20,000 nucleotides of DNA, taken from an uncultured virus (IMG/VR IMGVR_UViG_3300032038_000017) (taxonomy: Duplodnaviria > Heunggongvirae > Uroviricota > Caudoviricetes). Made by a program: the position numbers and the translations under genes. The DNA is taken from IMG/VR virus record IMGVR_UViG_3300032038_000017. One strand, written 5' to 3'. This document shows positions 2,136 to 19,950 of the stretch, piece by piece (within the stretch, counting starts at the first letter, position 1; every line of letters starts with the position of its first letter). Under the pieces are notes generated by a model, which worked only from the letters and a program-made list of their open reading frames with translations, made no database searches and was not told the origin of the DNA.

Positions 2136-2141
2136 CAATTC

Positions 2142-2522: not shown

Positions 2523-2530
2523 AGTTTCCG

Positions 2531-3157: not shown

Positions 3158-3183
3158 AGTGTTTATCTCCTTATGTCTATTGT

Positions 3184-3211: not shown

Positions 3212-3219
3212 CAACCAAC

Positions 3220-3492: not shown

Positions 3493-3518
3493 TGTAGTTA
3501 TCTCCTTATGCCTATAGG

Positions 3519-3546
3519 ATTATAACCTTACTAGGTGTTTACCCTG
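3519..3546 (-). promoter_or_regulatory. Early promoter copy 7
   Basis: Motif match. Confidence 0.85.
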
Positions 3547-3550
3547 ACAT

Positions 3551-3579
3551 AAGAAAAAAGACGGCAGAAAAGCCGTCTT
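3551..3579 (-). terminator. Intrinsic terminator after comM-like gene
   Basis: aagacggc/gccgtctt stem with U-tract. Confidence 0.8.
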
Positions 3580-3586
3580 AATTGTT

Positions 3587-4558: not shown

Positions 4559-4582
4559 AGTTTAACTCCTTATACTTAATGT

Positions 4583-4610
4583 ATTATAACCACACAACAA
4601 TTTTACCCTG
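4583..4610 (-). promoter_or_regulatory. Early promoter copy 8
   Basis: Motif match. Confidence 0.85.
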
Positions 4611-4619
4611 CAAGAAATT

Positions 4620-4648
4620 AAAAAGGGGCAACTTCTTTTCGTTGCCCC
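4620..4648 (-). terminator. Intrinsic terminator
   Basis: ggggcaac/gttgcccc stem with U-tract. Confidence 0.8.
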
Positions 4649-4657
4649 GTAATTTCG

Positions 4658-4957
4658 TTAGTACTCTGTGGAACCTCTGACTACTTCGCTGTTTGTTGTT
4701 TTTTCAAACTTTTCAAGAAACATATCACGGATTTCTGAAATGTCGTCACTGAAATCGTCCCAAGTTACTGTCTGCCCAAAGATTTCTCCGAGCAGCTTGA
4801 ATGTTTCAAACACTTTGTCGCAAAGCTCGTCTTCATAAGCCAAACAAGACCCACAAAGCAGATACTTCTTGCCTTCTACTTCAACAGTATGTGTTTCACA
4901 CATTCCAAGTCCTTTAGCTTTTTCTACCAAAGCAGACTTCAAATCTTTTAATGCCAT
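4658..4957 (-). CDS. Hypothetical early protein (99 aa, acidic)
   Basis: ORF, AAGGAGATAACT RBS, promoter copy 9. Confidence 0.85.
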   Translation of the reverse strand: MALKDLKSALVEKAKGLGMCETHTVEVEGKKYLLCGSCLAYEDELCDKVFETFKLLGEIFGQTVTWDDFSDDISEIRDMFLEKFEKTTNSEVVRGSTEY

Positions 4958-4981
4958 AGTTATCTCCTTTATAACTTACAG

Positions 4982-5009
4982 ATTATAACTTTACGGGGCT
5001 TTTACCCCG
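4982..5009 (-). promoter_or_regulatory. Early promoter copy 9 with embedded hairpin 4987-5017
   Basis: aactt-tacgggg/ccccgta-g-aagtt (one bulged base). Confidence 0.85.
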
Positions 5010-5016
5010 TAGAAGT

Positions 5017-5397
5017 TTATTTTTCTGCAATAATCTGTTTGATTTCCAAGTCGGATTTTTTCTCGTCTAAAAGCAGATTGATTTTTTCAACATACTTTTC
5101 GTCAAGTGTATCCAAGTATCTCAAATGACAGTTCTGCCAAATGTCAAACAGTGTGTTATAAAGGTTGCTTTTCTTCAAAGCTGGGAAATCGTTTCCCAAG
5201 TCGTCTATACACTGACCACAGTAAACATAGTCAGTTTTTCGACCATTCCACAATCCACCACCTAATGCCACACGAAATCTGTCGTCGTCTTTGTCAAGGC
5301 GAATGTCTATCTCGGCTTCGTTAATTTTTCTGCCACGACCCGAATAGTCCCACTTACCTAAACTGAATGACCTTTTCTTGTAGTCAAGTATCATCAT
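5017..5397 (-). CDS. Hypothetical early protein (126 aa), paralog of N-terminal part of 7858-8484
   Basis: Shared G-K..Y.G..RKIN, WN.R.TD, GQCID, LYN...D.W...HL motifs. Confidence 0.85.
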   Translation of the reverse strand: MMILDYKKRSFSLGKWDYSGRGRKINEAEIDIRLDKDDDRFRVALGGGLWNGRKTDYVYCGQCIDDLGNDFPALKKSNLYNTLFDIWQNCHLRYLDTLDEKYVEKINLLLDEKKSDLEIKQIIAEK

Positions 5398-5422
5398 AGT
5401 TTAATATCCTTATGCTAATAAA

Positions 5423-5450
5423 ATTATAACCTTGCACAAGTTCTACCCTG
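5423..5450 (-). promoter_or_regulatory. Early promoter copy 10 with embedded hairpin 5427-5460
   Basis: taaccttg/caaggtta. Confidence 0.85.
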
Positions 5451-5467
5451 CACAAGGTTATTGGATT

Positions 5468-5719
5468 TTACCAAACATGGCCAACGGAAAATTCGTCAAG
5501 ACCTTCTTCCAAGATTTTCAAATCAACCTTGTCGGCATCAATGTCTGTTGCACGAATAAGGAACGAATTGTTGTCTGAATGGTACATAATGTCCAACTTG
5601 CCAGTCTCTTCGTTAAGAACGACATCAACATTGTCTGAACTGTATTCATTCAGTTCTTCTTCCACCATTGACACAATTCTGTTTGCCAATCTTTCAGTCA
5701 TAGGATAAACTTTGCTCAT
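5468..5719 (-). CDS. Hypothetical early protein (83 aa, strongly acidic)
   Basis: ORF, RBS, promoter copy 11. Confidence 0.85.
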   Translation of the reverse strand: MSKVYPMTERLANRIVSMVEEELNEYSSDNVDVVLNEETGKLDIMYHSDNNSFLIRATDIDADKVDLKILEEGLDEFSVGHVW

Positions 5720-5745
5720 AGTCTTTATCTCCTTACACTATATAA

Positions 5746-5773
5746 ATTATAACCTTGCAAGATGTCTACCCTG
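5746..5773 (-). promoter_or_regulatory. Early promoter copy 11 with embedded hairpin 5752-5779
   Basis: accttgca/tgcaaggt. Confidence 0.85.
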
Positions 5774-5787
5774 CAAGGTCATTTGTT

Positions 5788-6561
5788 TTAGTCCTCAAAT
5801 ATTTCCCAACCAAGTCGGTCTTGAATCTCTTTGGTCTTTGCCGTCATAAGAGAATCAATCTCTTCGTAGACTTCAAGCATCTTGTCAAGTTCAGTTTCAG
5901 AAGGCATACGGTGATGGAAAGTTTTGCACCATTCCTTGTCCAAGGCACTTGCACCGTTCCAACCAACTATGGCAAACATTTCAATACCAAAGTCGCCATA
6001 CTTGTTGCAGAGTTCTTTAATCTGCCTTGCTTTCTGTGTTTTTGTGTCGTGGTCGTAGAAGTATTTCATTTCCAAGTCCCTCTTTTCTTCCAAGACATCG
6101 TGAAACCAAAGGTCTACGATACGACCATCCTCGTCATAGTATGGGGTGTAATCACTTGAACCCCAAAGAGTTCTAGGGGTCTTAGAACCAAAGTCCGTAT
6201 ACTCACGACCACCAAATGAATAGTTTCCATAATGGTAATGGTCGTCTACAATGCCCCAAGGGTCGTTTCTTTTCAACCACGCTTTAAGCGAATTAACCTT
6301 TACACAGCCCCAACTGTCCTTTTTCAAGGTGTCCTTTTCTGCGTTGTATTTGTCCATAAGGTTGAGCATATAAGTAGCCCCACCTTCGTGTCCACGCAGA
6401 AGATAATTCTTGTCGATAAAGTCAATCTTTTCTTTTTCAGAAAGTTTTACTTCATCTTCGTAAATGTAGTATCTGCAAGCGTTAGGTTGTCTGTCGTTTA
6501 CTCTGGCGATAGCGTCACACTTTTCCTTGTAATACTTCAAATCAGAAACATTGTATTCCAT
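5788..6561 (-). CDS. Hypothetical early protein (257 aa)
   Basis: ORF, TAAGGAGATAACT RBS, promoter copy 12. Confidence 0.85.
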   Translation of the reverse strand: MEYNVSDLKYYKEKCDAIARVNDRQPNACRYYIYEDEVKLSEKEKIDFIDKNYLLRGHEGGATYMLNLMDKYNAEKDTLKKDSWGCVKVNSLKAWLKRNDPWGIVDDHYHYGNYSFGGREYTDFGSKTPRTLWGSSDYTPYYDEDGRIVDLWFHDVLEEKRDLEMKYFYDHDTKTQKARQIKELCNKYGDFGIEMFAIVGWNGASALDKEWCKTFHHRMPSETELDKMLEVYEEIDSLMTAKTKEIQDRLGWEIFED

Positions 6562-6582
6562 AGTTATCTCCTTACAGATTAC

Positions 6583-6610
6583 ATTATAACCTTACAGTTT
6601 CTTTACCCTG
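6583..6610 (-). promoter_or_regulatory. Early promoter copy 12 (upstream element lies within last codons of 6592-7275)
   Basis: Motif match overlapping ...GSRVKKL* coding sequence. Confidence 0.85.
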
Positions 6611-7275
6611 CTGCCGTAAACTTTTGACCAATACTTACCCTTGAATTCCCCTTCGGTCATTTTCGCCTTGTTGTCTGTGTTTACGAACTTCATTCCAAGT
6701 TTTTCAAGTTCTGCCCTTAAAGCCTTTGTAACGACATTTGAAGGCAATACAACATCACTGTCATCAAACAATGCCTTGATAGACACGGCAACTTCATTGT
6801 CTGGAACAATGCGAATCGGCTTGTCCCACCTTGTAAGATAAACAAGTCTTGTGCCAGTCATAAGTCCACGAACCAATCCTGCCTTCCACTTCTTTATGCC
6901 TACTGAATCTTTTGCTTTTTCTGCCTTGTATGGATTTTTGCTTTCCAATTCAGACATAGGGATTTCAACTTCCATAATAGCCAAGTTGTCACGGTCTTGT
7001 GCCGAACTGAATTGGTCATTAAGCATAAAGTTTGAACTGTGAATGTATGGATTGTATTTTGCCTTAATCTTTTTGCCGTTTCCTTTGTCCAAAACAAAGT
7101 AGCCTTTTTCGTCTACCATAGACGGATTTTCTTCTGACTGTTCCCATACATTGAACTGAATAGGGTCACGAAGTTTTCCGTTTACCTTAGCACTTACGGC
7201 TGGATAAGGTTTTCCGTCAATAATCTGAACGGCTCTGTAAGCCTTCATAGTTTTTACATTATCTAAGTTAATCAT
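6592..7275 (-). CDS. Stand-alone domain of the type found in large phage/MGE polyvalent proteins; possible R-S-E ADP-ribosyltransferase-like fold
   Basis: YRA..IIDGK.YP, W-E-Q, YNPY.HSS, LNDQFSSA, EVEIP, Y.AE.AKD.VG, RWDKP.RIVP motifs; family and function are recalled/inferred. Confidence 0.55.
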   Translation of the reverse strand: MINLDNVKTMKAYRAVQIIDGKPYPAVSAKVNGKLRDPIQFNVWEQSEENPSMVDEKGYFVLDKGNGKKIKAKYNPYIHSSNFMLNDQFSSAQDRDNLAIMEVEIPMSELESKNPYKAEKAKDSVGIKKWKAGLVRGLMTGTRLVYLTRWDKPIRIVPDNEVAVSIKALFDDSDVVLPSNVVTKALRAELEKLGMKFVNTDNKAKMTEGEFKGKYWSKVYGSRVKKL

Positions 7276-7300
7276 TGTTTTATCTCCTTATGTTTTATAG

Positions 7301-7328
7301 ATTATAACCCTATAGGTGTTTTACCCCG
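7301..7328 (-). promoter_or_regulatory. Early promoter copy 13
   Basis: Motif match. Confidence 0.85.
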
Positions 7329-7331
7329 TAT

Positions 7332-7362
7332 AAAATTAAAGCCGACCTATAGAAGTCGGCTT
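7332..7362 (-). terminator. Intrinsic terminator
   Basis: aagccgac/gtcggctt stem. Confidence 0.75.
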
Positions 7363-7367
7363 ATTCT

Positions 7368-7766
7368 TTAGCAAGGCTTGATTTCTGCTTTGAAGAACGC
7401 TTTGATTTTGTTGTAGTAGTCGATTGCCTCAGTCAGTTCTGTAAAGAACTTGTCTGTCTGTGGAAATCCCTTACTTGCAACTGTTGCGTCTACTTCGTAA
7501 ACAACCCCAATTTCTATGTCGTCATCGACACTTGCAAGAATTCCCATACTTGCGGCTGGCACAACGTCACCAATGCCAATCTGTGTCATTGTGATGTCGA
7601 ATATACCGAATTCACCGTCTACTGAATAAGACGCTACACGGTTTGCCATCCAATATTCGATATCCTTGTCGCCCTTTTTACGAGTAATGTAGCCTTCTTC
7701 ACGAAGGTGTTCCATATCGCCTTTTTCAAGTGGAATGAACTTCAACTGACCTCTTCTAACTTCCAT
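7368..7766 (-). CDS. Hypothetical early protein (132 aa)
   Basis: ORF, TAAGGGGA RBS, promoter copy 14. Confidence 0.85.
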   Translation of the reverse strand: MEVRRGQLKFIPLEKGDMEHLREEGYITRKKGDKDIEYWMANRVASYSVDGEFGIFDITMTQIGIGDVVPAASMGILASVDDDIEIGVVYEVDATVASKGFPQTDKFFTELTEAIDYYNKIKAFFKAEIKPC

Positions 7767-7791
7767 AGTTTAATCCCCTTATAGTTTTATT

Positions 7792-7819
7792 ATTATAACC
7801 TTGTAGATTGTTTACCCTG
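7792..7819 (-). promoter_or_regulatory. Early promoter copy 14
   Basis: Motif match. Confidence 0.85.
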
Positions 7820-7822
7820 AAT

Positions 7823-7851
7823 AAAATTAAAGGTGGCTATGAAAGCCACCT
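7823..7851 (-). terminator. Intrinsic terminator
   Basis: aggtggct/agccacct stem. Confidence 0.75.
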
Positions 7852-7857
7852 ACATTT

Positions 7858-8484
7858 TTACTTGTAAAGTTCGTCCTCTTTGTAAAGGAAGTCTACAGAC
7901 AAATCCTTGTCAAGAATCGCACGAATCTTGTTCAAGTCTTTTTCGGGGATTGCACGATACAACCAACCGTGTCCGTATTTGTAAGGCTTTCCGTCTACTT
8001 CAACTTCATACAGTCCGTGTCTTTTCAAAAGTTCACAATCAACAGAATAACTGTTCCAAGCAGAACCGTGCCAATTCTGCCATTCCTTGAAATAGTTATC
8101 ACTGTAACCAATTTCGGCTTTGGCTTTTTCCCAAGCAGACTTGCGAAGTTCCTCACGGATTGTGTCTTTCTCGCTTGCAAAGTCTTTAAGACAGTTTTCT
8201 TGTTCAACAGTTCCGGCGTTCATGTCGTTCAAGTGATACTTGCCCCACAAGTCTGCAATCAGATTGTAAAGACGGTCGTTCTTGAAGTATCTTTTGATAC
8301 TGTCGATACACTGACCACCAGCAACACAATCCGTATGGCGAGAGTTCCAAACAAAACCACAAACACTGAATGTTGGTTTGTCTGTATCTGCATTACGAAG
8401 TTCAATGTCCAATCTTACGGCATTGATTTTTCTGTTGCCATTGTAGGCAATCTTGCCAAAGTCAATCTTTCGTTTCAAATCCAT
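7858..8484 (-). CDS. Conserved phage hypothetical protein (208 aa; GQCID, W..YHLNDM.AG, YKYGHGWL motifs)
   Basis: ORF, RBS, promoter copy 15; paralog of 5017-5397. Confidence 0.85.
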   Translation of the reverse strand: MDLKRKIDFGKIAYNGNRKINAVRLDIELRNADTDKPTFSVCGFVWNSRHTDCVAGGQCIDSIKRYFKNDRLYNLIADLWGKYHLNDMNAGTVEQENCLKDFASEKDTIREELRKSAWEKAKAEIGYSDNYFKEWQNWHGSAWNSYSVDCELLKRHGLYEVEVDGKPYKYGHGWLYRAIPEKDLNKIRAILDKDLSVDFLYKEDELYK

Positions 8485-8510
8485 AGTAGTTATCTCCTTA
8501 TGGCAAGTTT

Positions 8511-8538
8511 ATTATAACCTTGCCAAATGCTTACCCTG
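8511..8538 (-). promoter_or_regulatory. Early promoter copy 15
   Basis: Motif match; upstream stop abuts at 8539-8541; tggcaag/cttgcca IR flanks the -10. Confidence 0.85.
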
Positions 8539-8979
8539 TTAAACTTTCCAACCTTTTATGTCATCAAGATTGATTTTATACATACTTGCAAGTGTAGCAA
8601 CATAAAAAGCCGTAAGCCGTACAAATACATAATCCGTAGCACTGCAAGCCACTGACCATTCACCGTCTTTGAACAAATAAAAGTATCCAATGTCCCAACC
8701 TTCTTTCAAGATTTTGTCAAGTTTCTTAGCCTTGTGGACTACTTCTTTTTGGTCGTCATACGGCTTGTCATCGTCAAATGTAGAACGGTCACCGATAGCA
8801 ACAAGTTCACGAGCATTTCTGTCGTTGTATTCTTCTGCATAGTTTGGGTTTGTAGAATAACATTCTTCAAGGATTCTTGCACCTACCCCGTTTGGTCGAA
8901 CATAGCCGTCATTATGAATGTAACTGTAAGTGTAAGTTCCGTCTTTCTCTGCGTAGATAACATAGCATCTTGTACTCAT
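8539..8979 (-). CDS. Conserved phage hypothetical protein (MSTR...Y-I-H-N-D-G-Y...G-V-G...Y-F-Y-L-F-K-D-G-E-W)
   Basis: ORF, RBS, promoter copy 16; motif widespread in phage early regions (recalled). Confidence 0.85.
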   Translation of the reverse strand: MSTRCYVIYAEKDGTYTYSYIHNDGYVRPNGVGARILEECYSTNPNYAEEYNDRNARELVAIGDRSTFDDDKPYDDQKEVVHKAKKLDKILKEGWDIGYFYLFKDGEWSVACSATDYVFVRLTAFYVATLASMYKINLDDIKGWKV

Positions 8980-9005
8980 AGTTTAATCTCCTTATGCTCC
9001 TATAA

Positions 9006-9033
9006 ATTATAACCTTTATGTTATACTACCCTG
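9006..9033 (-). promoter_or_regulatory. Early promoter copy 16
   Basis: Motif match. Confidence 0.85.
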
Positions 9034-9056
9034 TAAGGATTATAACTTATAGGTTA

Positions 9057-9098
9057 TAAAAAAATCGGCAACACTATTAAAGAATTGCCGATAAAAAA
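9057..9098 (-). terminator. Intrinsic terminator
   Basis: atcggcaa/ttgccgat stem, U-tract on minus strand. Confidence 0.75.
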
Positions 9099-9449
9099 TT
9101 AAAAATTATTGTTGTTTTTCAAGGCTTCAACTGTCTTGTTAAAGACATCCAATGCCTTGTCAAAAGCGTCAGAAGGGAAGAACAAGTCGTGTCCTACACC
9201 TGCCGCGTTCATAATGGAAACAAGAAAGCCTTCCCTTGTTGAGACCATTACATCTATCGGCAACTGAACAATTGCGTTTTCTTCTGTTGCCGTCAGAACA
9301 ACTGAATTGTAGATGTCACCATCAATCTGTTTCTTTTGGGGTGTATCACACCAAGAAAAAAGTGGACAAATAACACTAAGTCCTTCTACCTCACCCAGTT
9401 CTTTCCACTGTTTGCTTTCTTTTGCCGTAAAACTTCTAAGTTCTTTCAT
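9099..9449 (-). CDS. Hypothetical early protein (116 aa, MKELRSF...)
   Basis: Start reassigned to 9449 (TAAGGAGAAACCAAACT-ATG; promoter copy 17 lies in the longer ORF call). Confidence 0.8.
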   Translation of the reverse strand: MKELRSFTAKESKQWKELGEVEGLSVICPLFSWCDTPQKKQIDGDIYNSVVLTATEENAIVQLPIDVMVSTREGFLVSIMNAAGVGHDLFFPSDAFDKALDVFNKTVEALKNNNNF

Positions 9450-9476
9450 AGTTTGGTTTCTCCTTATGTCTGTTGT

Positions 9477-9504
9477 ATTATAACCTATCAAGGTATCTAC
9501 CCTG
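9477..9504 (-). promoter_or_regulatory. Early promoter copy 17 with embedded hairpin 9484-9509
   Basis: cctatca/tgatagg. Confidence 0.85.
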
Positions 9505-9521
9505 ATAGGCTTTTCAGTATT

Positions 9522-10067
9522 TTAGCAACCGTAAACTTTCTTTGCGTAATGCAGATTTACACTGTAACCCTTGCTCCACAACTTTTCGTGTAATGTCTGT
9601 GGGTCATCGTATTCGTGTCTGTCAAAATATTCAACACCACGCTTTGTAAGTTTCTTTACTTCCCAACAGTTTGTTCCATCGTGGTGATAGCCGTGAATGT
9701 TGAATACACCTTTATCATCAAAGATTTTCATAGCGTCAACATTGCCCCAAGCCTTAGACAAGTCATTGTAATTCTTTACAACAAAACCACCACGATGCCG
9801 CCCATCCCAAAGTCCAGCAGAACCAACCAAGATAAAAATGCTACCGTCATTGAAGAAATTTTTAAGGTTTGACGCTTCTTCTTCCCAAGCAATTTCGTTA
9901 CAGTCATAGATTTCTTGACTGATTTCTTCGTTAGAAGGCTCCCAATCTTTATCTTCCGGAAAGTCTTCCAAGTGTCGGTCAATACAATACTGCCTTGCAT
10001 CATCCCAATCGTAGCCGTCATAATTATCAAAAATTACAACTTCCGTTTTCTTCTGTTTGTTACTCAT
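9522..10067 (-). CDS. Conserved phage hypothetical protein (181 aa; GLWDGR..G and HHDGTN motifs)
   Basis: ORF, RBS, promoter copy 18. Confidence 0.85.
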   Translation of the reverse strand: MSNKQKKTEVVIFDNYDGYDWDDARQYCIDRHLEDFPEDKDWEPSNEEISQEIYDCNEIAWEEEASNLKNFFNDGSIFILVGSAGLWDGRHRGGFVVKNYNDLSKAWGNVDAMKIFDDKGVFNIHGYHHDGTNCWEVKKLTKRGVEYFDRHEYDDPQTLHEKLWSKGYSVNLHYAKKVYGC

Positions 10068-10094
10068 AGTAGTTTATCTCCTTATGCTTTACAG

Positions 10095-10122
10095 ATTATA
10101 ACCCTAAGGTATGTCTACCCTG
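10095..10122 (-). promoter_or_regulatory. Early promoter copy 18
   Basis: Motif match. Confidence 0.85.
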
Positions 10123-10130
10123 TATAAATT

Positions 10131-10156
10131 AAAAACGGACAGATTTCTCTGTCCGT
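10131..10156 (-). terminator. Intrinsic terminator
   Basis: acggacaga/tctgtccgt stem with U-tract. Confidence 0.8.
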
Positions 10157-10163
10157 ATAACTT

Positions 10164-10568
10164 TTAGTCTTCTTCGTTTTCTGTTTCAAGATGACCAAAA
10201 CTGAATACCAAAATCTGATTTGGTTCAATTCCAACTTCTTTACCGTCGTAGTCAATGATTTTCTTTGTTTCGGAACAAAGGTTCTTTACATAGACATAAT
10301 CGCTGAAATACTTGTCAAAGTATGTTTCGTGGCGGAAGTCAACCGATTCTTCGATGAAGTACGGTTTATTGAACTCGCCTTCGTATTCAAAGTTATTGGC
10401 ATTGAACTCTTCCACTTCACGAACAAGGTCGTCTTTATTGTTGACTCTTCCGAGTCTTTCAATAACTTCTGGTCCGTGTCCGTTCTTTGTGTTGTACATG
10501 TCACCATTGAACTCGTATGAGGTGAACATACCCTCATCTGTGATAATCGCAAACTTTCCTCTTGTCAT
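10164..10568 (-). CDS. Hypothetical early protein (134 aa, acidic)
   Basis: ORF, TAAGGAG RBS, promoter copy 19. Confidence 0.85.
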   Translation of the reverse strand: MTRGKFAIITDEGMFTSYEFNGDMYNTKNGHGPEVIERLGRVNNKDDLVREVEEFNANNFEYEGEFNKPYFIEESVDFRHETYFDKYFSDYVYVKNLCSETKKIIDYDGKEVGIEPNQILVFSFGHLETENEED

Positions 10569-10590
10569 AGCAACTCCTTATGGTATCTGT

Positions 10591-10618
10591 ATTATAACCA
10601 TACAAGGCATTTACCCCG
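10591..10618 (-). promoter_or_regulatory. Early promoter copy 19 with embedded hairpin 10596-10625
   Basis: aaccatac/gtatggtt. Confidence 0.85.
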
Positions 10619-10633
10619 TATGGTTTTACATGC

Positions 10634-10900
10634 TTACGCAACAAGTTCCACTCTTGCGAACGGCAGATTTGTTCCTAAATCCCAAAACTCGAAATAGTCT
10701 GGTGAGCAAGAATGGTCTACATCGATGTTATCAAGGTATTCTTTATTCAAGAAACCTTTGTCGGCACAAGCCTTCATAATGTCATCAATAGACGCATCTT
10801 CGCCTACTTCGATTGGCTTTTCTGAAAACTTCATAATGTTGTTTACTTCATAATCGTTTTCATCGCCCCAAACATCATAGGTATAAAAGATATATTTCAT
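10634..10900 (-). CDS. Hypothetical early protein (88 aa, acidic; YDVWG...YEVNN motif)
   Basis: ORF, RBS, promoter copy 20. Confidence 0.85.
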   Translation of the reverse strand: MKYIFYTYDVWGDENDYEVNNIMKFSEKPIEVGEDASIDDIMKACADKGFLNKEYLDNIDVDHSCSPDYFEFWDLGTNLPFARVELVA

Positions 10901-10927
10901 AGATTTAATCTCCTTATAGTTCTTTTT

Positions 10928-10954
10928 ATTATAACCATAGTTTGTGTTACCCTG
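10928..10954 (-). promoter_or_regulatory. Early promoter copy 20 (14-bp spacer), first of the leftward array
   Basis: CAGGGTA-N14-TATAAT. Confidence 0.8.
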
Positions 10955-11823: not shown

Positions 11824-11850
11824 CAGGGTAAGAAATAATAAGGTTATAAT
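11824..11850 (+). promoter_or_regulatory. Early promoter, rightward (CAGGGTA-N14-TATAAT), overlapped by hairpin 11804-11826
   Basis: Motif match; ctgcaaga/tcttgcag IR. Confidence 0.8.
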
Positions 11851-13065: not shown

Positions 13066-14331
13066 TTAGGTGGTAGGTTCTTCGTCGTTATGTAAATCAG
13101 TCAATTCTGGTTCGTCTTGTGTATCCTTATCGGGATTTTCTTTCTTGAAAAGACTCTTTTTATTGTAATTACCTTTCGAATGGTACTTTTCTTTCTTATC
13201 AGAATCTTTATCCTTACTCTTACCTACTCTCTTTTCCTGACTACCTAATGGGCTTCCTGCATTAGAAAGTACTTTACCTGCTCGGCGACCCCACAAAGCA
13301 AGTTTAGATAAGTACTGGGCATAGTAGCTTCCACCGGGAATAAATGCACCTAAGCCATATGTAAATGCACCGAATGCCAAAGAAGCAGCAGATAACGAAC
13401 CACCTGCACCGATAAGCAGTGAATTTCTACGTGCGTCTAATGTCTTGATAAACTTCTGGTTATCTTTCAAGAACTTCTTGTAGTTCTTTTCCAATTCAGT
13501 AAACTCTTTAATAGCGTCTTTGAATGTTTCCTGTACGTCTTCAGGTTTTATTTTTGAAACACTTGTTGCATTAATGTCTGTTTCGATAGACATAACTAAA
13601 CTAAGCCAAGTCAATGCGTCCAGTTCTGTACTATAAATAAAATCTGGGTTTTCACCGGCTACGAATGTTTCGTCCATCCATTCCAGTCCTGGGTCTATCT
13701 TCTTAAAGAAATCTTTTGCCGAAGCATTTCCGTCAAGGAAAGACTTATACTCTGCTTCTGCTTTCTCAAAAAGCTCTTCGTCGAGAACCTTTCCGGTCTT
13801 TTCGTTTGAAACTGCTTTACGTTTTTTCAAATAAAAATTTTTAAAAGCTTCCTTAATCTTTTGTTTACTTTCGGCAGACGCTTTTTGGGCTTTTAATAAT
13901 GCCTTTGAGTATTCTTCAACATAATATACTCTTAAATTGCCGGTTACACCAAAAGAGTTCAAGATAAGACCTAGCATAGGTTCTTTTTCTTCTTTTGCAC
14001 CACAAGCCCTAACAATTTTGATAACGTTTTCTTTATTTTTCAAGCTTTCCCTATTAGCTATTGCCTGTGCTTCTGGTTCAGCTACGCCGTTTTCTACAAG
14101 TGAATCTTTCCATACAACAAGAATTTCTGCAAGTTCTGTGTCATTATCATTAAGAGACAATGGTTTTTTAACGATACCGTCCATGTCTAAACCGTTCTTA
14201 AATCTAACGGTCTTGATAGCGTCAATTAAAAGACCAAATACAGTATTTTCCTGGTCTTCTGTATATATTTTTTTTGTTTCGTCTTCTATAAGCTTTGAGA
14301 GGTTCTCGCGGTAAATGTTTGCAAAGTTCAT
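13066..14331 (-). CDS. Probable virion/internal head (ejection-type) protein, 421 aa, with Gly/Ala-rich hydrophobic segment and charged tail
   Basis: In head module; N-terminal x-x-E sites (YRE, LIE, YTE); LLIGAGGSLSAASLAFGAFTYGLGAFIPGG segment. Confidence 0.55.
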   Translation of the reverse strand: MNFANIYRENLSKLIEDETKKIYTEDQENTVFGLLIDAIKTVRFKNGLDMDGIVKKPLSLNDNDTELAEILVVWKDSLVENGVAEPEAQAIANRESLKNKENVIKIVRACGAKEEKEPMLGLILNSFGVTGNLRVYYVEEYSKALLKAQKASAESKQKIKEAFKNFYLKKRKAVSNEKTGKVLDEELFEKAEAEYKSFLDGNASAKDFFKKIDPGLEWMDETFVAGENPDFIYSTELDALTWLSLVMSIETDINATSVSKIKPEDVQETFKDAIKEFTELEKNYKKFLKDNQKFIKTLDARRNSLLIGAGGSLSAASLAFGAFTYGLGAFIPGGSYYAQYLSKLALWGRRAGKVLSNAGSPLGSQEKRVGKSKDKDSDKKEKYHSKGNYNKKSLFKKENPDKDTQDEPELTDLHNDEEPTT

Positions 14332-14648
14332 TATTCTGCTTCCCCCTTAGTTTCTTGATTTGTATTTAAGTCTTCTACCGGAGCTTGTGGGTCTTGATGG
14401 ACTGCCTTACGTATTTCCGGGCTATTAATTTTTTTCAAAACATTTTTTGCAGAATTAATGAATCCGTTAAGCTCACCAATTTCGTTCCTATTCTTGTAAC
14501 GGTCTTCTATTGTTTCATTAAACTCAGAAACCTGTGAAATAAACTTGTTCAATTTTTCATTAAGCTCTTTCCAGTTTTCTTCGTTGAGTTTACCGTCTTC
14601 AAGTTTTTCTTGAAGCTTATTTAAGAAAAATACTTCTTCGAAATCCAT
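14331..14648 (-). CDS. Probable prohead core/internal protein (105 aa, MDFEEV...)
   Basis: Start reassigned to 14648 (GGAG RBS, 4 bp after upstream stop); stop overlaps next start (TAATG). Confidence 0.65.
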   Translation of the reverse strand: MDFEEVFFLNKLQEKLEDGKLNEENWKELNEKLNKFISQVSEFNETIEDRYKNRNEIGELNGFINSAKNVLKKINSPEIRKAVHQDPQAPVEDLNTNQETKGEAE

Positions 14649-14652
14649 AAAA

Positions 14653-15021
14653 TTACTCCGCCTTAGCTTCTTGTTCCTGGTTAACTGGTGTTTCGTCCAA
14701 CTGGATGTTAACATCAATGTTCATCACTTTCTGCTTCAATGTTACAAGAGCCTGGGTGTCTTTCTGTCGCTGTTCTGGCGTAACATTTGGAGCTTTTGCA
14801 GTGCCCACTGCCTTAATCATACCGTCAAGCTGCTTGATAATGTCGGCTTTCTGTTTCTGCAATTTTTTAAGGTTATTGGCGGGTGAGCCAAACTTAGCCA
14901 GAATGCTTTGGATAATGCCAGCTTCTTCAAGCTTTTGAACGTATATGTCTTGCTGAGATTCTGTCATCTTAGCCAAGTGATTATTTATTTTTTCAATCTG
15001 TTTTTCTGTTATCTCTTTCAT
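14653..15021 (-). CDS. Probable prohead core/internal protein (122 aa, coiled coil)
   Basis: ORF in head module; ITE, MTES, LEEA sites. Confidence 0.65.
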   Translation of the reverse strand: MKEITEKQIEKINNHLAKMTESQQDIYVQKLEEAGIIQSILAKFGSPANNLKKLQKQKADIIKQLDGMIKAVGTAKAPNVTPEQRQKDTQALVTLKQKVMNIDVNIQLDETPVNQEQEAKAE

Positions 15022-15023
15022 AG

Positions 15024-15032
15024 TTAATTAGT
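15024..15032 (-). promoter_or_regulatory. Candidate late promoter ACTAATTAA
   Basis: Same motif recurs at 15958, 18613, 18670 (+) and 19751; lies just downstream of a terminator. Confidence 0.5.
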
Positions 15033-15039
15033 AAAAAAT

Positions 15040-15069
15040 AAAAAAAGCCTACGCATTACACGCAGGCTT
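15040..15069 (-). terminator. Intrinsic terminator after 15089-15898
   Basis: aagcctgcg...cgtaggctttttt on minus strand. Confidence 0.8.
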
Positions 15070-15088
15070 CTCACAAGGAAATAAAGGC

Positions 15089-15898
15089 TTATCCTTCGAT
15101 AGACTCACCGAGTCTTTCTTGTTCCTCTTCGTCGTTTATGTCCTTTACGTTACCGTTTTTTCCGGCTTCATTATCTTCGACTTTCTTGTCTGTATCTTCG
15201 CCGTCCTTAGGCTCTTCTGTTGTAGATTCACCCTCAGGTTTTTCTTCAGTAGCTTCTGCTGTTCCGGCAGTTTCAAGCTTCTTGTTTACATCGTCAAGAA
15301 GCTCCTGTTCTGCTTCCCCACCATTTTCTGGGTCAACCTTTTTAGCTTCCTGAATCTTCTGTTCAAGCTCGGTTTTGATTTTCTGAAGCTCTTCTGGATT
15401 CTCGGCGTTTGTATCAATTCTATTTTTGATTTCGTCAAGAACTTTTTCTTCCTGTGCAACTTCTGCTGCCATAGCTTGTTCTGATTTAACAATCTGTGGC
15501 TCAAACTTCTTCTTAGCTTCGTTGTATTTTGCCTGGGCATTCGTAACACCCTGTGTTGCAGTTGTTACTTGTGCCTTAAACTTCTGAATGTACTGAAGGT
15601 CACGTTGCTTACGTCCTTCGTCTGCCAAAGGTGAAGTCTGGATAATCTGTTCCATTCCTGCCAAAGCTTCCATGATTTTTTGGGTAGAACTTTCAACAGT
15701 TGGTGTACCTTTGTCCATCCACTTAGCAAACTTGTAGAACGCCTTAGTGAACACATTTCCACCTTTGTCACCACCTTGGGCAGCAACTGGTGCATCTTCT
15801 TTCAAGTAATCTTCAAAGAAACGACTTTTAGCAGATTCACTTACTTCAAGGGATTCATAAAGTTCTTTTAAGTAATCTGTATTAAACTTATCTTTCAT
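15089..15898 (-). CDS. Probable prohead core/internal protein (269 aa, acidic C-terminus)
   Basis: Directly downstream of protease-scaffold; LYES, VSES, LKED sites; AGAGG RBS. Confidence 0.65.
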   Translation of the reverse strand: MKDKFNTDYLKELYESLEVSESAKSRFFEDYLKEDAPVAAQGGDKGGNVFTKAFYKFAKWMDKGTPTVESSTQKIMEALAGMEQIIQTSPLADEGRKQRDLQYIQKFKAQVTTATQGVTNAQAKYNEAKKKFEPQIVKSEQAMAAEVAQEEKVLDEIKNRIDTNAENPEELQKIKTELEQKIQEAKKVDPENGGEAEQELLDDVNKKLETAGTAEATEEKPEGESTTEEPKDGEDTDKKVEDNEAGKNGNVKDINDEEEQERLGESIEG

Positions 15899-15921
15899 TC
15901 TTCAAACCTCTTTAAAATCAT

Positions 15922-15954
15922 ATGTTCCCCATAACACACAAGTATGGGGAACAT
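15922..15954. terminator. Perfect 12-bp hairpin (terminator or RNA stability/processing element)
   Basis: atgttccccata/tatggggaacat. Confidence 0.65.
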
Positions 15955-15961
15955 TTTTTAA

Positions 15962-17737
15962 TTAGAACAATCCAAGTGATGCAGCAAGTGAATCAACTTG
16001 ATTATTCGTTGTGTTTCCTTCATAGAAGTCAGAAGTTTTTCCCTCTGTTGGAACATAAGTTGTGCTTTCGTCAAGCTGTCCAGCGTTTTCGAGTTCACGT
16101 GCAACTGACATAAACATTCTCTGTGCTTCACGGAGTGAACGTGCGTTCAAGAATGAATTCTTGTAAGGCTTAATAGACTCGCCATAACGTGCTTCGAGGT
16201 CATTGTAGTAAGAAACAACACTTCCTTCCATTGTCTTTACGTAGTTGTCTACATTTTCACCAAGACGGCTCTTCAATGTAGAAACTTCACGGCGAAGAAT
16301 GTTGATTTCACGTTTTGCAGATTCGTCAAGCTGTGTCATGTCAAGCTTAACTGGCTGAGCTTCTTTTTCTTTGAATGTAGCAAGGGCTGCCTTCAAAGCG
16401 TCGTTCTCTTCTTTCATTGCAGTGTATTCTGCAACATTTACTGAACCGGCTACCATAGACTCGTTGAGCTTCTGTTTGTTTTCTGGTACGTTGTTCTTTG
16501 CAGATTCTTTCAATTCAAGAATTTCGTCTGCTGCTTTGTCAAGTTTAGCGTTAGCTTCTTTGAGCTGTGTTTTAAGGATACCGTTTGCCTTTTCGAGCTT
16601 AGCGTTTCCTTCTTTGTATGTTTCAAGTTCCTTGTTAGCTTTTGCAAGGGCTTCCTGCATTTCCAAAACTTTTGCACCGGCTTTTGTATCAAGGTCGTCG
16701 AAGTTTTCTTTCAACTGCTTAACTTGTTCAGAAAGTGAAACGATTGTAGAGTTCTTTGAAATGTCAAGACTTTCGTTTGTAGCTTCTGCCAATTCAAGCT
16801 GTGCTTTAAGAGCATTGTGTTCGCTCATAATCTGCTGATTACGTTTTGTGATAGCCTCACAAAGTTCCTTGTAATCCTGAACCTGTTCAATCAAAAGTTT
16901 ACCAGACTTCATAATGGATTTTGCAGATTCATTTACTTCACTTACAGAAGAAGCCTGGAGGTCAAGCTTCATTTTGTGGGCTTCAGCAATGTCTTCGTTC
17001 AATTTAATCTGGAGGTCAGAAATACGGCCAGAAACTGCTTCTTCAAGGTCTTTAAGTCCACTTTCTTTTACCAAAGCGAGAACTTCGTTAGACTCTTCAA
17101 TTACTTCAAGCGGGTTTTCTGCACTGTGGTCTTTAGCCAAGAATGCTTCAACGTGCTCACGAATTGCTTTTGCCTGTTCTGGTGTAAGTTTGCTTTCAAA
17201 CAAGTCGTCGTCTTCACCTGCTTCAACTGCGGCAGTGTCGATTGTTGTATCAACGTCTGGGTCACCAACAGAAATGTTTGCGTCTGAATTTTCTGGGATA
17301 GCTTCTGTATCAGCAGTAGTTGTTTCTGGAATTTCTTCTGGTGCAACAACTGCATCATCAGCAACTGGGGAAGGAGCTGGCTCTTCAACCGGCTCTTCGT
17401 TTACTTTTACAACAGTGTCGCCGTTTGCCTGAACTGTAACGTCTGTTTCTGGAGCGTCTTCTGCAACAGTAACTGTTGTTTCTTCCATTTTAAGACCTTT
17501 CTCTACCAATACTTCGATTCTCTTCTGAGCTTCTTCAAGTCTTGCAGGGATTCCTTCTTCAAGGTCAGTAAGCTGTCCTTCCTGGATAAGCTTCTGGATT
17601 TCTTTCAAATCTTCCAACTGTTTAAGTGGGTTAGTGATTTCTGTGTTTTCTTTCAAATAGTTATTGATGTATTTGCGGAGCTCTTTTTCCTCAACCTTAG
17701 AAAGAGCTGACTTAACGCCGGTTTCTTTTGCGTCCAT
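15962..17737 (-). CDS. Nested in-frame scaffold protein (591 aa, MDAKETG...)
   Basis: AGGAGA 8 nt upstream of in-frame ATG (Met264) just after the protease domain. Confidence 0.55.
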   Translation of the reverse strand: MDAKETGVKSALSKVEEKELRKYINNYLKENTEITNPLKQLEDLKEIQKLIQEGQLTDLEEGIPARLEEAQKRIEVLVEKGLKMEETTVTVAEDAPETDVTVQANGDTVVKVNEEPVEEPAPSPVADDAVVAPEEIPETTTADTEAIPENSDANISVGDPDVDTTIDTAAVEAGEDDDLFESKLTPEQAKAIREHVEAFLAKDHSAENPLEVIEESNEVLALVKESGLKDLEEAVSGRISDLQIKLNEDIAEAHKMKLDLQASSVSEVNESAKSIMKSGKLLIEQVQDYKELCEAITKRNQQIMSEHNALKAQLELAEATNESLDISKNSTIVSLSEQVKQLKENFDDLDTKAGAKVLEMQEALAKANKELETYKEGNAKLEKANGILKTQLKEANAKLDKAADEILELKESAKNNVPENKQKLNESMVAGSVNVAEYTAMKEENDALKAALATFKEKEAQPVKLDMTQLDESAKREINILRREVSTLKSRLGENVDNYVKTMEGSVVSYYNDLEARYGESIKPYKNSFLNARSLREAQRMFMSVARELENAGQLDESTTYVPTEGKTSDFYEGNTTNNQVDSLAASLGLF

Positions 17738-18526
17738 TTCTGTATTCTCCTGAATTCTATTTTCTGATTTGTTTTCAACGGATTCATTTACTACCGTTTT
17801 CTTTGTATATTCGATGTTACCAAGATTTGTTTCGTTGTTGATAACACCATAAACTGACTGTGATGGATTAAGTACAACGTCTGCCAAACGTTCAATCTGA
17901 TATGTATCAGGATTAACTGTTTCGCCGTCTGCTTCAAGCTCACCGAATCCAGAAGAACTGAATCCTACACGACCACCAGCGTCAATGATTTCTTGTGCCA
18001 AATGACCATATGGTCCTACGAATGTACCAATACCGTATACAAGGTTGTTTCCTTCGTCGATATCCATTCCAAGCCATACGATGCTACTGTTTTTGAAGCT
18101 ACCTGGGTCAGAGTCGTCTGTTGGATGGTCTGCGAGACCACAAAGACCTTTCCAAGCGTCTTCCTGATTATTCATAACGTTTTCCCAAAGTGCCTTAGGA
18201 TAACGTCTGTGGTTTCCGTTAACGGTTCCGGGTGGATTAATGCGAGCTACAGGCACACGATAAATACGCTGCTTGTTTACATCTACGCCACCTTCCTTTA
18301 ACTTGCTAACAACTTTCTGGACAATTGCGTCTTCTACCTTTGCTTCACGAAGTGCCTTAATAATCTGATTGTTTGTAAGAGATTCGAGCATTTTTGATTT
18401 GCCACGTGAGGCATTATACTCAGTAATCTTTACATTCATAGATTCTTTAAGAGCTGCTGGTGCAGAATCTGTAATGTCGGAATAATAGCTGTTAGGCATT
18501 GTAAGTGTTTCTCTTAAATGTAACAT
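15962..18526 (-). CDS. Prohead core protease (T4 gp21-like) fused to long coiled-coil scaffold, 854 aa
   Basis: N-G-N-H-R-R-Y-P, G-L-A-D-H-P (catalytic His), G-F-S-S-S-G-F-G (catalytic Ser), D-V-V-L-N-P-S; C-terminal ~590 aa acidic coiled coil with many L/V-x-E-S sites. Confidence 0.85.
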   Translation of the reverse strand: MLHLRETLTMPNSYYSDITDSAPAALKESMNVKITEYNASRGKSKMLESLTNNQIIKALREAKVEDAIVQKVVSKLKEGGVDVNKQRIYRVPVARINPPGTVNGNHRRYPKALWENVMNNQEDAWKGLCGLADHPTDDSDPGSFKNSSIVWLGMDIDEGNNLVYGIGTFVGPYGHLAQEIIDAGGRVGFSSSGFGELEADGETVNPDTYQIERLADVVLNPSQSVYGVINNETNLGNIEYTKKTVVNESVENKSENRIQENTEMDAKETGVKSALSKVEEKELRKYINNYLKENTEITNPLKQLEDLKEIQKLIQEGQLTDLEEGIPARLEEAQKRIEVLVEKGLKMEETTVTVAEDAPETDVTVQANGDTVVKVNEEPVEEPAPSPVADDAVVAPEEIPETTTADTEAIPENSDANISVGDPDVDTTIDTAAVEAGEDDDLFESKLTPEQAKAIREHVEAFLAKDHSAENPLEVIEESNEVLALVKESGLKDLEEAVSGRISDLQIKLNEDIAEAHKMKLDLQASSVSEVNESAKSIMKSGKLLIEQVQDYKELCEAITKRNQQIMSEHNALKAQLELAEATNESLDISKNSTIVSLSEQVKQLKENFDDLDTKAGAKVLEMQEALAKANKELETYKEGNAKLEKANGILKTQLKEANAKLDKAADEILELKESAKNNVPENKQKLNESMVAGSVNVAEYTAMKEENDALKAALATFKEKEAQPVKLDMTQLDESAKREINILRREVSTLKSRLGENVDNYVKTMEGSVVSYYNDLEARYGESIKPYKNSFLNARSLREAQRMFMSVARELENAGQLDESTTYVPTEGKTSDFYEGNTTNNQVDSLAASLGLF

Positions 18527-18612
18527 ACTTCCTTTTTACTCCATATATTTGGCATTTTAAGCCACACGAGATTAATTTAAGTATCTGAATGGACTAATCC
18601 TCAAACACTTAA

Positions 18613-18621
18613 TTAATTAGT
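18613..18621 (-). promoter_or_regulatory. Candidate late promoter ACTAATTAA for protease-scaffold
   Basis: Motif recurrence upstream of structural genes. Confidence 0.5.
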
Positions 18622-18669
18622 GGAAATAGATTTTAATTACTTGAAAAATTAAAAATAATCAAAAGCTCT

Positions 18670-18678
18670 ACTAATTAA
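18670..18678 (+). promoter_or_regulatory. Candidate late promoter ACTAATTAA, divergent, driving putative sRNA
   Basis: Motif on + strand with no protein gene downstream before a terminator. Confidence 0.5.
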
Positions 18679-18805
18679 TCCGAGCACCAGAAATTGTGTT
18701 TCGAACGAATGTTTCCGTTGTTCCTACAACATTATTGTTTTAACGGATTTATCTCCTTACTACATTTAAACAAAACACCGTCCACAATGGACGGTGCTCT
18801 TTTTT
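18679..18805 (+). ncRNA. Putative ~125-nt small RNA with exposed anti-SD segment UUUAUCUCCUUAC
   Basis: Candidate promoter, two hairpins (18681-18703, 18714-18747), single-stranded 18748-18775 identical to the complement of the early RBS, terminator 18776-18805. Confidence 0.5.
18772..18805. terminator. Bidirectional intrinsic terminator
   Basis: caccgtcca/tggacggtg 9-bp stem; T-tract on + strand, aaaa on left giving U-tract on - strand. Confidence 0.8.
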
Positions 18806-19544
18806 AGTATCTTGCAGTTAAAACGTATCCACCTGGATTTGTACCAACCGGATAATTATATACGTAGAAGTATATTCCAGAACGACAGTCTGATTCATCA
18901 TGAACCCCACGGTTATGTTCCCCAGAGAATACCTGACGATTAATACGAACCTGACGGAATTCTTGTGTTACTGTAAAGTCTGGTTCATTTGACTGATAAG
19001 CTACAATACTTTCCGTTCCGTTTTCGTCTATGTATTTAAGAACCATAACGCCGTCTGCTGCTTCCTCTTCCTGATACAATGGAAACATGATTACATCATT
19101 CTGAACATATCCTTGACGTTCAAAGAAACTCTTGCTTCTATCACGGCGATTATCCGGATTAGCTTTATCTTTGTTTCTTTCATTTGATTCCAGATAAAAT
19201 CCAAGGTTTGTTAAAATGTCTTTTTCTTCATTAGACGTTGGTCTGTATACACGATGTGTTGCGGTATACTGTGGAACTATTGTTAGTTTATCTGGGTTAA
19301 ACAAGAACGTATATGGGGCTTCGGTCTTTCGTGGGAAGTCCAAACGCAAAGAAATCAAGAATTCGTTTTCACTTACGATAAAAACCGACGGAGCTTTCTC
19401 TACTCTTTTAGAAGAAAACTCCAAGTTTTCCACTTGGTCAAAAAACATCTTCCTTATTTTCACGTTGGTAGTGATGTCGTTCTCGTCAAACTTTTTCTGT
19501 GTAAGGGTTGTATTCTGTTCAACCCATTCCGACAATTTACTCAT
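18804..19544 (-). CDS. Hypothetical protein (246 aa)
   Basis: ORF; AGGAGG RBS; start overlaps upstream stop (TAATG). Confidence 0.8.
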   Translation of the reverse strand: MSKLSEWVEQNTTLTQKKFDENDITTNVKIRKMFFDQVENLEFSSKRVEKAPSVFIVSENEFLISLRLDFPRKTEAPYTFLFNPDKLTIVPQYTATHRVYRPTSNEEKDILTNLGFYLESNERNKDKANPDNRRDRSKSFFERQGYVQNDVIMFPLYQEEEAADGVMVLKYIDENGTESIVAYQSNEPDFTVTQEFRQVRINRQVFSGEHNRGVHDESDCRSGIYFYVYNYPVGTNPGGYVLTARY

Positions 19545-19744
19545 TATTTTTCCTCCTGCCAGTCATTTGCAAACAATTCAGGTAGAGACAACTTTATCTT
19601 CTTCCAGGAAAAAGAATCATTGTCCCAGTAGTTTACAAGAGAACCGGCTTCTTTTTGATTTGCTAAGCTTATGTAATTTCGTCTAGGCCACTTACTTCTT
19701 CTTAATTTCGTGACACCTTTTGCTACTAGCTCTAGATACGTCAT
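19544..19744 (-). CDS. DUF2829/Tad2-like small protein (66 aa)
   Basis: M-T-Y-L-E-L...G..L-R-R-S-K-W and terminal E-L-F-A-N-D-W-Q-E resemble DUF2829 (Thoeris anti-defence 2) consensus; start reassigned to 19744. Confidence 0.55.
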   Translation of the reverse strand: MTYLELVAKGVTKLRRSKWPRRNYISLANQKEAGSLVNYWDNDSFSWKKIKLSLPELFANDWQEEK

Positions 19745-19950
19745 TATAGTAATTAGGCACAATTTATGATTTTCAAAATTTGGATTTCACTAACATAAAC
19801 TAACTTAGTAAAAGGGGCATTTAGTATCTTGGCTACATTACTTGTACATAACAAGTAAAATTCAAAGAAAAAGAGGTGATGCCATTTCAGTTAATATATC
19901 TGCCAAAGATGCTTATTAGCCCTTTAATTTTTTATCAAAAGAGGTGAACA

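Follow-up and report, generated by a model that had tools for sequence, protein, structure and literature searches.

The window that we analyzed is a stretch of 20,000 nucleotides, taken at its full length, from an uncultured rumen phage (IMG/VR record IMGVR_UViG_3300032038_000017; G+C content of 38.6%). On its minus strand, an array of short genes runs from position 1 to about 10,900; nearly all of these genes lack a known family in Pfam or PHROGs. Larger genes occupy the minus strand from 13,066 to 19,762. Two of these, which encode proteins of 246 amino acids (aa; 18804-19544) and 854 aa (15962-18526), are both on the minus strand and are separated by a gap of 277 nt. Our subject is an element in this gap (18682-18805) that may encode a small RNA (sRNA) directed against the leaders of the short genes.

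Most genes of the array share what we call the early cassette, in which 9-10 nt separate GGTTATAAT from TAAGGAGATAAA (or a sequence close to it) and a further 3-5 nt lead to the ATG. The window contains GGTTATAAT 20 times, as compared to 0.17 expected; 19 are on the minus strand (149-10936) and one is on the plus strand (11842-11850). Judging from this spacing, individual promoters and 5' untranslated regions (5' UTRs) of less than 20 nt seem to be the rule for the small early genes, with few exceptions. We call the array genes early because the promoter is -10-like, which would make it of the host type. The array and the two promoter-like motifs of the gap are:

125-10916, minus strand: early gene array, the proposed targets, with the 19 minus-strand copies of GGTTATAAT and 12 leaders that match TAAGGAGATAAA at 11 or more of 12 positions and lie 3-5 nt before ATG.
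18670-18679, plus strand: phage-type (late) promoter-like motif ACTAATTAAT, which faces the RNA; the predicted start is at about 18681-18683.
18612-18621, minus strand: second ACTAATTAAT, the promoter-like motif of the 854-aa gene, which faces the opposite way.

The gap shares a 12-mer with the early leaders. As a preliminary description of this DNA had it, TTTATCTCCTTA is present exactly at 18748-18759 and also at 125, 807, 3162, 5724, 7279, and 10073, for 7 copies. That description listed three more leaders that match at 11 nt; the correct count is six leaders that match at 11 of 12. If one mismatch is allowed, then the window has 13 copies (7 exact and 6 more) as compared to 0.23 expected, and none of 200 shuffles reached 13. 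All 13 copies are on the plus strand, and their minus-strand reading is TAAGGAGATAAA. Twelve of them serve minus-strand early genes as ribosome sites, downstream of GGTTATAAT promoters. The copy in the gap is the only one without a GGTTATAAT promoter and a start codon, and it had rightly been seen that it would not serve as a minus-strand ribosome-binding site: the nearest downstream ATG is 17 nt away, and TTG TAG comes right after it. This orphan site, which resembles a Shine-Dalgarno (SD) sequence, has a terminator before it, and the promoter motif of the next gene is about 140 nt farther downstream. Beside it, at the equivalent of 18760-18775, the minus-sense sequence is TATAAT in L004 and TATGAT in L006 (two of the related loci described below), in both cases 4 nt before TAAGGAG, and is TTTAAAT in the window. 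This TATAAT-like stretch may be the decayed -10 of a former early cassette.

We scanned metagenome contigs for relatives of the 854-aa protein and obtained 21 loci. The whole gap element is kept in L002, L003, L004, L005, and L006 (79-100% protein identity), and the RNA is also kept, without the 12-mer, in the more distant L007. Among the window and L002-L006, the spacer between the two promoter motifs is unalignable. In this close clade, just 1 of the 12 columns of the seed (the 12-mer) is variable, as compared to 5 of 10 and 7 of 12 columns in its flanks. Because the seed is less variable than the flanks, and because no reading frame is kept on either strand, the comparison of these sequences indicates that the element at 18682-18805 is non-coding and under selection.

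We also considered a small protein and rejected it: there is no start codon in the minus sense, and the frames are not kept between lineages. An open reading frame (ORF) of 32 codons on the plus strand (18709-18807) has early stops in L004 and L006 and is probably spurious; its start coincides with the ends of two RNA-library contigs (18709/18710). In L007, an ORF of 28 codons runs through the element in the sense of the genes (1289-1378, plus strand of that locus). It has a purine-rich GAAGAAGAA before its ATG and no counterpart in the other lineages.

The preliminary description drew a hairpin at 18681-18703 and a second hairpin from tccgttg and taacgga. Neither is kept in the relatives. The conserved fold consists instead of a terminal rod that joins both ends, hairpin A, and hairpin B. 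Its parts, and the terminator that overlaps it, are:

18682-18688 and 18793-18799, plus strand: P1, GAGCACC/GGTGCTC, which is GGCACCC/GGGTGCC in L007; 4 of 7 pairs are compensatory.
18693-18698 and 18783-18788, plus strand: P2, ATTGTG/CACAAT, whose 3' partner is the loop and top of the terminator hairpin.
18703-18707 and 18779-18782, plus strand: P2b, GA(A)CG/CGTC.
18717-18730, plus strand: hairpin A, GTTGT-TCCT-ACAAC, with the loop UUCCUA identical in all lineages; 3 of 5 pairs are compensatory.
18741-18759, plus strand: hairpin B, with 5' arm TAACGGA (18741-18747), loop TTTATC (18748-18753), and 3' arm TCCTTA (18754-18759).
18776-18796, both strands: terminator hairpin, CACCGTCCA/TGGACGGTG, with 9 pairs, of which 6 are G-C.
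18793-18799 and 18800-18805, plus strand: the 3' arm of P1 and T6, the predicted 3' end of the RNA.

The 12-mer is the loop plus the 3' arm of hairpin B. P2 is ATTACG/CGTAAT in L004 and GTTGTG/CATAAC in L006, and 3 of its 6 pairs are compensatory. Covariation in related contigs had been put forward as a check, and it was found: an alignment of 6 sequences that was fitted to the model has compensatory changes in 11 of 28 pairs and pairing in 98.2% of 163 cells, and since the alignment was fitted to the structure and has few sequences, these counts lean towards structure. None of 500 shuffles reached this level of compensatory change, and slid controls had no more than 2 compensatory pairs. Despite the fitted alignment, the eye readily picks out the stem swaps in P1, P2, and hairpin A.

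A 9-bp terminator with a T-tract on the plus strand had also been proposed. The hairpin is there, but CTC precedes the T6, and the minus strand is served as well: on that strand, TTTTGTTT follows directly after the stem and ends the 246-aa gene, so the site has the shape of a two-way intrinsic terminator. The terminator hairpin excludes P2, P2b, and part of P1, and the energies of the rod and the terminator are within 0.2-6.7 kcal/mol of each other.

L007, which lies outside the close clade, was recovered with a covariance model that was built from five sequences. The match at L007:1283-1410 scores 25.4 bits (E about 1e-3 over 138,610 bases), and the neighboring protein, of 870 aa, is 72% identical. 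There, ACTAAATAAT is followed by CAAA and then by a new P1 sequence. The stem of hairpin A has been swapped to ACCGU/ACGGU around an unchanged UUCCUA loop, and hairpin B is in the same place with a different sequence. The minimum free energy (MFE) of the L007 RNA is -40.4 kcal/mol (z = -6.5). The 8.6 kb of this locus include one early-type cassette (TGTATAAT, 10 nt, AAGGAGAAATAACCAATG), and the loop and arm of hairpin B, AUUUCUUCUU, could form 10 bp, one of them a G-U, with AAGGAGAAAU. Reading from the sequences, seed and leader from different clades can pair over only 7 bp each way. The pairing in L007 is consistent with co-evolution of the seed and the leader.

The 601 bases around the gap have no DNA match among 50,697 phage records. 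In a collection of genome contigs, nothing was related to the 854-aa protein or fit the element pattern; in a collection of viral contigs, the protein had a single distant relative (L001), and nothing fit the strict element pattern. G001, a distant relative of 240 kb, has no array of TAAGGAG leaders (19 copies, as compared to 13 for a control pattern), and the RNA covariance model found nothing better than E 0.72 in it. Weak covariance-model matches in L013 and L001 proved to be plain terminators. A looser pattern (the promoter motif and the loop of hairpin A) hit 118 stretches of viral contigs, but none of 80 loci fit the RNA model at E ≤ 0.1, so we attribute these hits to chance. Rfam 15 gave no matches at gathering thresholds over the window, and for the gap at E ≤ 10 the best score was 20.5 bits against a threshold of 55 (E 0.26), with 6S RNA and the known phage RNAs included. 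Whatever it does, this element is a phage RNA that is new, supported by covariation, and equipped with a defined promoter motif.

We think that the RNA is probably on the plus strand, because of the promoter motif, the geometry of the 3' end, and the wobble pairs. The plus-strand ACTAATTAAT was correctly described and lies at 18670-18679; the two copies of ACTAATTAAT in the window are divergent and 48 bp apart. Where the ends are present in the data, ACTAATTAA or its variant ACTAAATAA stands before the rod in the window and in L002, L003, L004, L005, L006, and L007. The motif has the form ACTAA(T/A)TAAT (ACTAAATAAT is the L007 version) and is 4-8 nt from the 5' arm of P1 in every lineage. In L007, the motif of the RNA has no divergent partner, so it is more than one half of a symmetric site for a protein and would belong to the RNA. 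Other genes, in close and distant relatives, also have ACTAATT or something close to it (ACTAAAT in L007) 3-25 nt before their SD sequence or ATG. The motif ACTAATTAAT resembles TATAAATA, which we take to be the T4 late promoter.

As for the 3' end, T6-7 follows immediately after the 3' arm of P1 on the plus strand, and the extra bases between the motif and P1 in L006 and L007 are A's that extend P1 into the U-tail. Four wobble cells pair only on the plus strand (they are C-A mismatches on the minus strand) and one pairs only on the minus strand, a 4-to-1 count that is not significant.

The RNA is probably made at middle to late times, because its promoter type is the same as that of the neighboring 854-aa gene, which appears to encode a prohead protease; the late timing comes from the promoter type only. 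The 854-aa protein has hundreds of metagenomic relatives. Among 12 aligned members of this family, 6 match Peptidase_S77 (best E 2e-4, below the Pfam cut-off), and a language-model feature score (Atlas) is 0.95. The N-terminal 260 residues look like a T4 gp21-type prohead protease. If so, this is a head-assembly gene and presumably late.

The protein joins a Peptidase_S77-like domain (residues about 100-225) to a tail of about 600 residues, whose consensus sequence has a low-complexity, coiled-coil-like look; the tail is possibly a scaffold that has been fused on. The PDB yielded no match by sequence, and an AlphaFold model of the protease domain had a pLDDT of 44.5 and was not used. The 5' leader of the protease gene (18527-18580, minus strand) contains a hairpin plus AATATATGGAG (CTCGTGTGGCTTAAAATGCCAAATATATGGAG). 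This arrangement does not vary in the close clade and, with changed stem sequences, is recognizable down to about 42% protein identity (L001, L007-L018); it is a possible translational operator.

A late-type ACTAATTA lies 3-6 nt before the ATG of a 122-aa gene (window 15021-15032, minus strand) and of its homologs (L003 at about 4056, L007 at about 6916, and L021 at about 2049 and at 371). In the window, a strong terminator (15042-15072) is directly before the motif. Such late messages may be leaderless. Midway through the early array, a gene at 3587-4558 on the minus strand encodes a Mg-chelatase (ChlI)/YifB-like AAA+ ATPase (E 4e-67), the only gene of the array with a clear family.

We propose that the plus strand of the gap specifies a non-coding RNA about 120 nt long, from roughly 18682 to 18805, which would be transcribed from its own phage-type promoter ACTAATTAAT. 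Its 5' end would pair with its 3' end to form an interrupted rod (P1, P2, P2b) that ends directly at the U-tract. The rod would present two pyrimidine-rich sites: one is the loop UUCCUA of hairpin A, and the other, in hairpin B, combines the loop UUUAUC with the weak arm UCCUUA. The loop and arm of hairpin B are the exact complement of UAAGGAGAUAAA, which is the SD site plus spacer of the early mRNAs. From the -10 spacing, the early messages should start 2-3 nt before TAAGGAG, so the target would be the extreme 5' end of the message.

Binding might proceed as follows. The loop of hairpin B would contact the private GAUAAA tag of the early leader. The loop is complementary to this spacer, which late genes lack, so it could be a toehold that is specific for early phage messages. 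Pairing would then spread into the arm and displace UAACGGA, an internal mimic, until a duplex of 11-12 bp covers the ribosome site and blocks initiation on at least 12 early messages. Late messages, and presumably host messages, that share only AGGAG would be spared.

The predicted energies are compatible with this scheme. Among 32 starts tested in all, the duplexes of the seed region with most of the early starts are at -12 to -21 kcal/mol, including those with all 12 leaders that match at 11 or more of 12 positions, as compared to -7 to -10 kcal/mol for 10 late or plus-strand starts. The seed had been described as unpaired. Its 3' half, UCCUUA, is in fact paired with UAACGGA in the consensus fold, and opening it costs 0.66 kcal/mol in the window, 1.0-3.6 kcal/mol in the relatives, and 0.7-3.9 kcal/mol overall.

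The original idea of a late sRNA against the early leaders therefore keeps its conserved non-coding element, its promoter-motif geometry, and the better pairing of early starts than of late ones, and it loses the fold as drawn. We consider a late sRNA acting on the early leaders to be the best single explanation of the element, and we hold it tentatively, at somewhat less than an even chance. A bolder form of it, in which we have a little less confidence, is that the RNA is a counterpart of the T4 nuclease RegB: a late sRNA with a nuclease-resistant rod and a toehold hairpin that would silence at least 12 early genes at the early-to-late switch, with a seed and a leader tag that co-evolve between clades (UUUAUCUCCUUA/UAAGGAGAUAAA here and AUUUCUUCUU/AAGGAGAAAU in L007).

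A number of observations count against a plus-strand RNA that acts on the early leaders. L007 keeps the RNA but not the 12-mer, and the pairing of its own seed with its single early-type leader (-11.4 kcal/mol) is equaled or beaten by 109 of 1,000 shuffled leaders. The core of the seed is mostly base-paired in the relatives, where P(unpaired) is 0.003-0.2. Besides, the leader is an ordinary strong SD sequence, and the copy in the gap could be a relic of an early cassette. A single RNA would have to titrate many abundant early messages. Folding energies do not favor either strand (RNAalifold gives -26.2 for plus and -25.1 for minus, and the MFEs of single sequences differ by at most 3.7 kcal/mol, in either direction). 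And on the plus strand, the terminator has a 3-nt CTC spacer before its T-tract unless P1 forms.

The RNA-library data, which are assembled contigs from 4 runs in 3 studies, count on both sides. In favor, positions 18753-18803 are covered in all 4 runs and 18709-18803 in 2 of the 4. Yet these contigs carry no strand, and DNA can occur in RNA libraries. Contigs from the 246-aa gene pass through the terminator, and their ends lie at 18753/18756 in two runs and at 18709/18710 in the remaining two. This run-on, and the place of the element right after the stop codon of that gene, count against the plus strand; the run-on fits a plus-strand RNA that the assembler merged with a convergent message and fits a minus-sense 3' UTR equally well. 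In run X9, the depth of the seed contig is 2, as compared to 6.6 for the neighboring gene, so an abundant, discrete sRNA is not in evidence; small RNAs are usually lost from libraries of this kind. Positions 18601-18708 are uncovered in all 4 runs, and no contig joins the orphan site to the message of the 854-aa gene; missing cover is not evidence in either case. In 3 of the 4 runs (3 studies), contigs of the protease gene end at 18598-18600. This is downstream of its motif by a few bases and weakly suggests that the motif indicates a start.

The structured RNA might be made from the plus strand and yet not be aimed at the early leaders. Its CU-rich sites could bind other messages (host mRNAs or late AGGAA-type sites), or the rod could bind a protein, and the match of the 12-mer would be inherited from a captured early promoter-RBS (ribosome-binding site) cassette that is now read backwards. 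We think this somewhat unlikely, but it would explain why the loop UUCCUA, and not the 12-mer, is the only site that is identical in both clades, why hairpin B of L007 differs in sequence, and why half of the seed is buried. The minus-sense TATAAT-like relic 4 nt before the orphan site in L004 and L006, decayed in the window, also fits descent from a cassette. On the other hand, four lineages have an identical UUUAUC loop, where drift would be normal for a loop, and the seed varies in just the one column. The match of 12 of 12 to six leaders and of 11 of 12 to six more gives the best seed pairing among the 32 starts, and the search of Rfam families (6S RNA included) gave no match. If a cassette did arrive here, then it might have no function at all and simply be decaying beside the terminator. 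The identity to the early RBS consensus, the same facing as all early cassettes, and the lack of a start codon are what such a fossil would look like. This is very improbable, given that the 12-mer and the surrounding helices are conserved where the neighboring spacer is unalignable, that 11 of 28 pairs are compensatory, and that L007 has a homologous fold.

Another explanation, which we consider unlikely, is that function lies in a minus-sense RNA, namely a long and structured 3' UTR that belongs to the 246-aa gene, with the rod as a composite terminator and stabilizer. The orphan TAAGGAG would be a ribosome-binding decoy or a stabilizer of the STAB-SD kind, hairpinned by UCCGUUA, and the plus-oriented ACTAATTAAT would be a U-rich terminator tail or a chance motif. 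In both clades, the stop codon of the 246-aa gene is immediately followed by the element, whose other neighbor differs between the clades. The minus strand folds equally well and has a terminator T-tract directly after the stem, the RNA-library contigs continue from the 246-aa gene through the terminator, and orphan SD sequences that stabilize mRNAs are known (Agaisse and Lereclus 1996, as cited in PMC7509114). But the orphan SD sequence has no promoter before it and has a terminator directly upstream, and the segment complementary to the terminator is downstream of it on the minus strand, so it should not be able to control termination. Four wobble cells become C-A mismatches in the minus-sense RNA, as compared to one the other way. 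Reading the motif as a tail would leave unexplained why TTAGT (ACTAA), which equals the promoter motif of other genes, is kept in six lineages. Finally, the minus-sense hairpin B of L007 has no GGAG.

We rejected two other candidates. A decoy for CsrA, with minus-sense AGGA loops, does not fit L007, which has a single GGA site in the loop of hairpin A and none in hairpin B, and that strand has no promoter. An RNA like 6S or like the pRNA of phi29 has no support from Rfam, and its size and context do not fit.

Small phage RNAs that block translation by pairing at or near a ribosome-binding site include c4 of P1 and P7, OOP of lambda, and sar of P22. Each of these acts on one neighboring or overlapping message, in immunity or lysogeny, whereas the RNA proposed here would act in trans on many messages as a timing switch. 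Phages are known to end early expression by transcription changes and, in T4, by nuclease cleavage of early ribosome sites; we know of no phage that uses a single trans-acting RNA against a leader that is common to its early genes; a full-text literature search aimed at phage trans-acting anti-leader RNAs found no case. The STAB-SD of cryIIIA from Bacillus thuringiensis is reportedly a strong SD sequence in the 5' UTR that stabilizes the mRNA. Our orphan site is similar in being a strong SD sequence without a start codon at usable spacing. The STAB-SD is said to lie in the 5' UTR of the message that it stabilizes; in contrast, our site is behind a terminator, and the helices that surround it covary.

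CU-rich sRNAs that pair with SD sequences are described from low-GC Gram-positive bacteria: LhrC1-5 of Listeria, RsaE, RNAIII, and SprD of Staphylococcus aureus, and FsrA of Bacillus subtilis (PMC4132741). These sRNAs have redundant pyrimidine-rich motifs, in a hairpin loop and near the terminator, that pair with the SD region, and the final duplex of LhrC4 requires a stem-loop to open (PMC4132741). The opening of hairpin B that we propose would be similar. Our RNA differs from the LhrC/RsaE type in being phage-encoded behind a phage-type promoter, in pairing its 5' and 3' ends in a rod, and in its proposed targets, which are 12 or more of the phage's own early messages that share a private 12-nt leader. 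Its motifs are UUCCUA and UCUCCUUA and not UCCC, and we found no sequence or Rfam relationship to that type. From its strong SD use, we expect the phage to have a host among the Firmicutes.

RegB of T4 inactivates early messages at ribosome sites that have GGAG followed by an A-rich tract, and spares most middle and all late messages (PMC3014915). The consensus of its strong sites is GGAGRAYARAA (PMC3014915), which the early leader GGAGAUAAA resembles. Like T4, our phage has a putative T4-type prohead protease. RegB itself is a protein made early, and it cleaves RNA with S1 as its helper (PMC3014915); the agent proposed here is an RNA, which would cover the site. Pfam scans of 29 ORFs of the 20-kb window revealed no RegB gene. 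A RegB-like nuclease is another possible reason for uniform leaders, but it would not explain the orphan copy.

An anti-leader RNA of this kind would be a new form of the CU-rich anti-Shine-Dalgarno sRNAs. If it does act on the early leaders, then an early-to-late switch with a simple mechanism would be readable from sequence alone, and the RNA would be a natural toehold-type design. If the comparison with RegB holds, then this would explain why the early leaders of this phage stay uniform, and a switch of this kind would give a reason for the very uniform promoter-leader cassettes in many uncultured phages.

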